From Escherichia phage vB_EcoM_VR7, in the sequence record NC_014792.1: 64,000 nucleotides of DNA; one strand, 5' to 3'. The notes under the pieces are model-generated. The model searched no databases and was not told the origin of the DNA. It was given only the letters and a program-made list of their open reading frames with translations. The translations under genes were made by a program, and so were the position numbers. This document shows, piece by piece, positions 33,709-33,996 of this stretch. The stretch's first letter is position 1. Each line of letters begins with the position of its first letter.

Positions 33709-33744
33709 AAGCCTTGCGGCAACCTTGTCGGGGTTCCACCTGCT

Positions 33745-33835
33745 AGGCAAGTGTTTGTACGAAACGCCGGGATTCGAACCAGGTTATTAAGTAGTTGACG
33801 CTACTAAATATTTTTAAAAGGCCATATCTCGACCA
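33745..33835 (-). ncRNA. tRNA-like remnant or small stable RNA (uncertain)
   Basis: Minus sense contains T-arm-like CCTGGTTCGAATCCCGG and hairpin AGTAGCGTCAACTACT, but no acceptor stem can be formed. Confidence 0.2.
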
Positions 33836-33996
33836 TATCCGAACGTTCCGTCAAAAACGCTACTCGGCTTACGGCAAAGATATTTCCTCGAATCGTTAAT
33901 TAGGTGCGCCGTTTCAGCTGTGATATAAGGGGTCATTAACAAAACATAAAGATTTATTAATGCCGGTCCTTAAACAGGGAACATCAGTCCGACGAC

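Follow-up and report, generated by a model that had tools for sequence, protein, structure and literature searches.

Comparative analysis of the RNA C and RNA D locus of Escherichia phage vB_EcoM_VR7

RNA C, RNA D and comparison with tRNA-shaped RNAs

RNA C and RNA D are small stable RNAs of bacteriophage T4 that have been known since the 1970s. RNAs comparable in shape to RNA C include mascRNA, the vtRNAs of gammaherpesvirus 68 and the bacterial YrlA Y RNAs, whose tRNA-shaped modules borrow RNase P-type processing and not decoding; the ends of YrlA form a Ro-binding stem and not an acceptor stem, and a kissing-loop body is, to our knowledge, not a feature of the mascRNA, vtRNA or YrlA families. 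Here, we examined a 64,000-nucleotide sequence of Escherichia phage vB_EcoM_VR7 (NC_014792.1; this whole stretch is called the window), in which an earlier note, made from the letters alone, had proposed on the minus strand of 33720-33960 either an equivalent of RNAs C and D from T4 or a decayed tRNA. Comparison with the T4 sequences favored the former: 34022-33758 (-) was collinear with T4 rnaD plus rnaC at ~93% identity and almost without gaps (alignment to NC_000866), and judging from this similarity the stretch almost certainly holds the Tequatrovirus counterparts of both genes. RNA C lies entirely within the interval of the earlier note, which extends into RNA D over its 3' half only and takes in some of the trailer that follows RNA C. 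The locus itself is already known and ordinary, being orthologous to two T4 genes that have been on record for decades. Comparison across phages revealed that RNA C is a conserved tRNA-shaped RNA, which is neither a tRNA nor a decayed tRNA.

In the T4 reference sequence NC_000866, tRNA-Arg is followed by rnaD ("species 2 RNA", 71171-71053) and then by rnaC ("species 1 RNA", 71046-70908). The window copy of rnaC showed full-length homology to T4 70908-71046 (~98% identity within the RNA) and was located after rnaD and before a trailer and a terminator, the same order as in T4, with the same predicted fold. It differs from T4 at position -1 (A in the window, U in T4) and by two private G-to-U changes that break pairs. 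The rnaD copy was recognized by homology and by its position directly upstream of rnaC. Its 5' 45 nt and 3' 25 nt are almost identical to those of T4, and the two copies share hairpin 1 and the closing helix as well as an apical hairpin. On the other hand, the apical hairpin of the window copy is of the VR5/ESCO10 type, a U.U occurs at 33983/33916, the 3' end reads ...CACCU where T4 has ...CACCA, and the 5' end does not directly follow tRNA-Arg as it does in T4, a 555-nt open reading frame (ORF) lying between them, an arrangement common to other phages. Together, rnaD and rnaC are the final genes of the tRNA transcription unit, which ends at a terminator at 33708-33680 (-), the G+C-rich hairpin plus T6 that the earlier note had correctly picked out as a terminator.

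The region is conserved well beyond chance. A 501-nt query around the locus retrieved 763 phage records, nearly all from T4-like phages of Escherichia, Shigella and Yersinia; the number of matching phage records was ~760-810 over the searches, and several of them carry rnaC/rnaD annotation at this site. A covariance model (R1) matched the window RNA C from end to end with 171.9 bits (E ~1e-43), a result that is circular because the window copy is part of the 13-sequence seed.

The statement of the earlier note that the stretch is not a canonical tRNA was also borne out, since ARAGORN made no call at the locus and the Rfam tRNA model (RF00005) did not match it even at E up to 10. Within 33600-34100, Rfam returned nothing relevant either at the gathering score or when E values up to 10 were allowed, the Y RNA, YrlA and mascRNA families included, and no sequence or model match linked the locus to mascRNA, the vtRNAs or YrlA. 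The check with ARAGORN and Rfam that the earlier note had recommended thus yielded no family; its reading as a T4 counterpart nevertheless stands, as Rfam has no family for these RNAs.

RNA C resembles a canonical tRNA in having a 7-bp acceptor-like stem that continues into a 5-bp T stem with a UUCGAAU loop, in its similar four-arm layout, in annotated ends that correspond to +1 and the discriminator, and in being embedded in tRNA gene clusters. In contrast with a tRNA, it has no D arm, 7-nt anticodon loop or variable region: a 70-nt arm replaces the D arm, hairpin B occupies the position of the anticodon arm with its loop engaged in a predicted kissing interaction, and ACA or UCA is found in place of CCA in most lineages. 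As in tmRNA, the two ends of RNA C come together in an acceptor stem beside a T arm, and a large structured insert separates them. However, RNA C is 139 nt long and lacks G3.U70 (pair 3 is A-U or G-C), a tag frame and pseudoknots, and neither ARAGORN nor Rfam called a tmRNA. The locus is not a tRNA, a tmRNA or a member of any Rfam family.

Structure of RNA C

A model of 52 base pairs was derived from diverged copies of RNA C and evaluated by counting pairs on three alignments (A2, A3 and A6), with slid partners and 500 shuffles as controls. In A2, which contains 13 distinct sequences aligned with MAFFT and not fitted to the model, 92.3% of the cells were paired versus 36-45% when partners were slid, and 21 of the 52 pairs had changed on both sides. 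In A6, with 26 distinct sequences from at least eight genera fitted to the covariance model, 90.8% of the cells were paired (36-46% with slid partners) and 32 of the 52 pairs had changed on both sides. None of the 500 shuffles reached the observed value in either alignment. The RNA C of the window, folded alone (-41.9 kcal/mol, z = -2.54), gave the same four-arm layout, and it retains 48 of the 52 pairs; the four missing ones comprise the tandem U.U of the acceptor stem, which is common to most of the family, and private breaks at 33806 and 33781. We are therefore highly confident of the nested secondary structure of RNA C. The short helix P2 (3 bp) had a pairing of 74%, which is partly an alignment artefact, as the covariance-model alignments place its GGCC segment inconsistently in some genera. 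The RNA C model also detects genuine tRNAs, with 20-30 bits, through their acceptor and T arms.

The acceptor-like stem of RNA C has 7 bp, and the long arm of 70 nt starts directly after it. The earlier note had been unable to build such a stem, which proved to be wrong: the strands at 33895-33889 and 33766-33760 pair, with a tandem U.U mismatch. The stem reads CGAUUCG/CGUUUCG in T4 and the window, and CGGUUCG/CGUUCCG in Karamvirus, Gelderlandvirus, Kanagawavirus and Marfavirus, in which pair 3 has changed from A-U to G-C. In Tegunavirus it is fully paired (CGGUCCG/CGGACUG), pairs 4 and 5 being U-A and C-G where the other phages mostly have U.U. Among the 24 pairs of the long arm, 19 had changed on both sides across genera in A6, and this arm was also recovered by the single-sequence fold. 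The A-rich linker that joins it to hairpin B contains an AAAA(A)U run that is nearly invariant in the alignments, and it may have a structural role.

Eight of the ten pairs of hairpin B had changed on both sides in A6. Its upper part, at 33805-33790 (-), is the hairpin AGTAG-CGTCAA-CTACT of the earlier note, which turned out to be the tip of a 10-bp stem (33810-33785). A single unpaired A separates hairpin B from the T arm, which then runs into the 3' strand of the acceptor stem. The T arm had likewise been seen in the earlier note, with one mismatch in its stem (CCTGG-TTCGAAT-CCCGG, 33783-33767, -); the mismatch is a U.C at the middle pair, which is G-C, U-A, A-U or U.G in other phages and unpaired in the window copy only.

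Besides these nested helices, the loops of the long arm (loop A) and hairpin B (loop B) are exact reverse complements, and all six pairs between them form in each of the 26 distinct sequences. Two independent double changes were observed at different positions of the loops, UUGAUG/CAUCAA in Tegunavirus and UUGGCG/CGCCAA in the Marfavirus-like copies. Because the loops are exact complements and co-vary twice independently, the sequences suggest that they probably form a 6-bp intramolecular kissing interaction, which would close the long arm onto hairpin B and generate a compact two-helix bundle.

Distribution, RNA D and flanking elements

Sensitive BLAST searches recovered the RNA C part by itself from further genera, namely Karamvirus, Tegunavirus, Gelderlandvirus, Kanagawavirus, Mosigvirus (RB69), Marfavirus and Moonvirus, and from the unclassified Citrobacter phage Ursula. 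Two tRNA genes flank it in Karamvirus and Gelderlandvirus, without RNA D and far from any terminator, and in phage Ursula it directly follows a tRNA gene, again without RNA D. The opposite situation was found in Dhakavirus (JS10, AnYang, IME281, VR5 and ESCO10), where RNA D, the trailer and the terminator are kept and RNA C is cleanly absent; the junction there reads ...GGCGCAC followed by AGAACACTTGCC, or by CGAACACTTGCC in the others. Because each RNA occurs without the other in some genera, the two are separable. As judged from these arrangements, rnaC is a discrete module that can be inserted or deleted, and RNA C and RNA D are independent modules.

Wider pattern scans added little to this distribution. 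Few new types of RNA C were recovered from IMG/VR amid many chance matches, and only 3 of 58 pattern matches in metagenomes were real RNA C. In the bacterial and archaeal genomes of GTDB, all 12 matches were ordinary tRNAs (14-30 bits), so that no cellular homologue was found with the one exact pattern used. A separate element was observed in four IMG/VR contigs of uncultivated phages (at ~4800-4960 of one of them), with a tRNA-like 3' end and a weak match to the 3' end of the Rfam tmRNA family (E = 1.3e-4). This 3' end is followed by an RNA of ~120 nt with an acceptor-like stem (GCAACCG/CGGTTGC) and the T arm GGGTTCGAATCCC. The element had a weak sub-threshold match to mascRNA and no ARAGORN call; it may be a two-piece tmRNA or some other tRNA-shaped RNA.

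RNA D is a conserved structured RNA as well. Its closing helix (GUCGUCG/CGGCG(C)AC) reaches the 3' terminus, and its apical hairpin occurs in three unrelated sequence versions, each of which pairs. A tRNA-like reading of RNA D was considered and rejected, as no T arm is found beside the closing helix. At the 5' side, the stop codon of the upstream ORF (33999-33997) overlaps the 3' end of hairpin 1, and the first 25 nt of rnaD encode the last codons and the stop of this ORF. A terminator scan flagged the complement of hairpin 1 plus a T-rich run at 33999-34015 (+) as a terminator-like site of the plus strand, which is probably the mirror image of the RNA D hairpin.

The coordinates of all features are listed in Table 1. 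The trailer contains small hairpins, including one with a GCAA tetraloop, and is conserved even in phages without rnaC; it may be a processing site. Trailer and terminator together have a folding energy of -31.4 kcal/mol (z = -2.48). In the close relative G2540-3 the homologous hairpin carries a terminator annotation, and the older T4 record X03016 calls it a potential terminator. A simple terminator scan misses the site at 33708-33680 owing to internal U.U pairs.

Table 1. Positions of the stable-RNA genes, their structural elements and neighboring features in the window
Feature	Position	Strand	Basis or remark
tRNA-Met(CAT)	34726-34652	-	ARAGORN, Rfam; upstream gene of the same transcription unit
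tRNA-Arg(TCT)	34647-34571	-	ARAGORN, Rfam; upstream gene of the same transcription unit
184-aa ORF, MUG113/T5orf172 domain	33997-34551	-	Pfam; between tRNA-Arg and rnaD
rnaD counterpart (species 2 RNA)	33903-34022	-	Alignment to T4; consensus fold with covariation
RNA D hairpin 1, ACCGG-GUCGCUA-CCGGU	33999-34015	-	Outer pair A-U, G-C or G.U
rnaC counterpart (species 1 RNA)	33758-33896	-	139 nt, NC_000866 convention; alignment to T4, covariance model
rnaC by the X03016 convention	33895-33759	-	Acceptor +1 to discriminator U
Acceptor-like stem, 5' strand CGAUUCG	33889-33895	-	Pairs with 33766-33760; pair 3 A-U or G-C
Long arm, helices P2, P3 and P4	33819-33888	-	Position of the tRNA D arm; tandem A.G mismatch and AGU bulge
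Loop A, UUGACG	33849-33854	-	Caps the long arm; exactly complementary to loop B
A-rich single-stranded linker, UUUAAAAA	33811-33818	-	Joins the long arm to hairpin B
Hairpin B, 10-bp stem, loop CGUCAA (33800-33795)	33785-33810	-	Covariation; "pot. stem-loop structure" in X03016
T arm, CCUGG-UUCGAAU-CCCGG	33767-33783	-	Middle pair varies among phages
Acceptor-like stem, 3' strand CGUUUCG	33760-33766	-	Followed by invariant U (33759), then ACA
Trailer between RNA C and terminator, small hairpins	33709-33757	-	Fold; directly follows rnaD in Dhakavirus
Intrinsic terminator of the tRNA/stable-RNA unit, AGCCCCTTCCGAAAGGTTGGGGC then T6	33680-33708	-	Fold

The 184-aa ORF inserted upstream of rnaD has no counterpart at the tRNA-Arg/rnaD site of T4. 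Based on its domain, it is a putative GIY-YIG-like homing endonuclease; its relatives (tblastn) were mostly located in the tRNA regions of T5-like phages, and some of them are annotated as homing endonucleases. A relic of the 3' end of a T4-type tRNA-Arg (ATACCA, 34029-34024) is present just upstream of rnaD, and the same cassette of tRNA-Met, tRNA-Arg and ORF was found in REP2 (Tequatrovirus) and ESCO10 (Dhakavirus). By analogy with SegB in T4, this suggests a mobile cassette that replaces segments of the tRNA cluster. The whole window contains only two tRNA genes (ARAGORN, Rfam), compared with eight in the homologous T4 cluster, and the sequence of its tRNA-Arg differs from that of T4 tRNA-Arg.

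Proposed biogenesis, rival explanations and possible function

With regard to the ends of RNA C, X03016 starts species 1 RNA at acceptor +1 and closes it with the one U that follows the stem, and ends species 2 RNA at ...CACCA. The acceptor stem of RNA C is followed by an invariant U, one variable base and an invariant C-A (positions +2 and +3): U-ACA in T4 and the window, U-UCA in Tegunavirus and U-CCA in the Marfavirus-like copies. Since the annotated ends are those expected of a tRNA-like substrate, RNA C appears reasonably likely to be processed in the manner of a tRNA, by RNase P at its 5' end and by trimming at its 3' end. In Karamvirus, Gelderlandvirus and phage Ursula, moreover, RNA C comes after a tRNA gene as a further tRNA would. 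The RNA would be co-transcribed with the tRNAs and freed by RNase P at acceptor +1, 3' trimming would halt at or beside the discriminator U, and the product would then accumulate owing to its tight fold.

It has been reported that T4 makes a discrete stable RNA of ~140 nt from the rnaC locus; RNAC and RNAD of T4 were classed as late RNAs, with northern-blot validation using an RNAC probe (PMC9697503). The transcript of the T4 tRNA cluster is thought to end after the species I RNA gene (PMC2330249). A motif scan detected no T4 late-promoter motif (TATAAATA) near the locus. A sigma-70-like promoter that agrees with the consensus at 11 of 12 positions (TTGAAA, 17 nt, TATAAT) was observed at 34117-34145 (-), inside the inserted ORF and ~95 nt upstream of rnaD; it could provide rnaD and rnaC with their own transcription start in this phage.

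Taken as a whole, orthology to the T4 genes together with a tRNA-shaped RNA C is very likely the best explanation of the locus, with the biogenesis above as a reasonably likely and the function discussed below as a tentative part of it. Several points speak against it or limit it. The co-varying sequences represent only ~6-8 clades, and the fitting of A3 and A6 to the model favors it, although the unfitted A2 gave the same picture. The covariation of the loops fits pairing between two RNA C molecules equally well. Kanagawavirus CIP9 (420-575 of the extracted locus) and one other copy keep the T stem with a 7-nt loop UGCAUGC, not UUCGAAU, and given the non-consensus loop of CIP9, recognition of the T loop may not be essential. 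The two T4 records differ by 1 nt at each end of rnaC, NC_000866 being the longer, so that the annotated RNA ends in U in X03016 and in UA in NC_000866; the RNase P step is deduced from such annotated ends and from work of the 1970s, and the evidence for expression comes from T4. The mismatches in the T stem and hairpin B cost RNA C ~10 kcal/mol, and on this folding estimate the window copy may be impaired. Finally, the function of both RNAs is stated to be unknown (PMC3014915, PMC9697503), and a literature search on species 1 RNA, its processing by RNase P and any recent function found only statements of this kind.

The possible impairment leads to a reading in which the window copies are real orthologues that are decaying in this lineage, perhaps with constraint relaxed after insertion of the ORF cassette, or else contain sequence errors. 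In alignments with T4 and a few relatives, the single-base differences included three private substitutions, at 33916 in rnaD and at 33806 and 33781 in rnaC. Each of them puts a U in the RNA and breaks a conserved pair without compensation: the change at 33916 creates the U.U with 33983, the only U.U at rnaD alignment columns 41/113, and the two G-to-U changes in rnaC create a U.U in hairpin B (33806) and the U.C at the middle pair of the T stem (33781), at which the window is the sole unpaired sequence. Among 744 matching phage records, none exceeded 97.0% identity (two mismatches) over the 66-nt stretch holding 33806 and 33781, and restoring G at both positions changed the folding energy of RNA C from -40.1 to -50.1 kcal/mol, which is the value of other Tequatrovirus copies. 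However, three changes in ~260 nt do not exceed the local divergence from the closest relative, HEMP5 (10 substitutions in 349 nt), and most positions are paired, so that random changes mostly strike pairs. In addition, REP2 has the same ORF cassette with the pairs intact, and the remaining helices, both loops and the terminator are all intact in the window. We therefore regard this reading as improbable. The three changes may reflect mild decay, a step on the way between G-C and U-A pairs as found in other phages, or sequencing error.

The other alternatives concern the family as a whole. A near-consensus T arm and an acceptor-like stem, in an RNA that has no D arm or 7-nt anticodon loop and is rejected by ARAGORN and the Rfam tRNA model, would be expected of a tRNA pseudogene whose T arm persists by inertia and which lacks any function of its own, the second suggestion of the earlier note, and the T stem of the window is indeed mismatched. 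Nevertheless, the architecture of the 70-nt arm and hairpin B is conserved and the loop pairing co-varies together with the nested pairs across the genera of A6; such compensatory changes are not expected of a pseudogene, nor is the discrete stable RNA made from the T4 locus (PMC9697503). Because it is the parts unlike a tRNA that co-vary, a decayed tRNA can be set aside with very little residual doubt. An even smaller chance is left to the 42-aa hypothetical protein that many GenBank records place here (33942-33814, -). The frame is open over 42 codons from a TTG start, and relatives carry a CDS annotation at the same place; however, the start is not conserved (relatives have TTA, CTG, TCG or GTG), an in-frame stop interrupts it in T4, the frame crosses the rnaD/rnaC boundary, and substitutions track RNA pairing instead of codons. 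We rejected this ORF as coding, with its unconserved start and interrupted T4 frame, and its annotation is very likely spurious. Some GenBank records label the region as tRNA-Arg or tRNA-Lys.

The main rival is that RNA C and RNA D are cis-acting by-products, that is, structured spacers for processing, for protection of the 3' end of the tRNA precursor or for termination, with no role in trans. The position in Tequatrovirus, last in the tRNA operon and shortly before the terminator, agrees with this idea, as do RNA ends that coincide with tRNA-type processing sites and the fact that 50 years have revealed no trans function (PMC3014915). Yet RNA C of Karamvirus and Gelderlandvirus sits in the middle of tRNA clusters, Dhakavirus has the rest of the unit without it, and the kissing-loop fold seems more elaborate than a spacer requires. 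Moreover, when a T4-like phage was evolved on a semi-permissive host, the one SNP that all lines shared lay in rnaD (PMC12685909), which hints at a host-dependent role of rnaD. A purely cis-acting role is weakened by the separability of the two RNAs, and we consider it unlikely.

If the preferred explanation of a conserved tRNA-shaped RNA C holds, the RNA could, in trans and uncharged, mimic a tRNA and so occupy or titrate a factor reading the acceptor/T-arm part of tRNAs; candidates are a tRNA-directed defence protein and host enzymes for processing or modification. Such a decoy function is put forward tentatively and with low confidence. It is similarly doubtful whether RNA C founds a class of structured phage RNAs that is undescribed and absent from Rfam, which would combine an acceptor/T-arm minihelix with a kissing-loop body, be matured by the tRNA machinery and serve as an uncharged tRNA mimic in trans; possible host targets to be titrated or redirected would include RNase P, a defence nuclease directed at tRNA, the CCA-adding enzyme and an enzyme that modifies T loops.

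Many GenBank records mis-annotate the locus as a hypothetical protein or tRNA-Arg; the comparative result would justify a curated RNA family, which would keep these genes from being called proteins. The added value of our analysis is the comparative structure, in which RNA C is conserved in at least eight genera of enterobacterial T4-like phages and independent of RNA D, and this structure model makes the function of RNA C experimentally testable. If RNA C does belong to a class of tRNA mimics, RNAs C and D, orphans for 50 years, would gain a role in host takeover or counter-defence.

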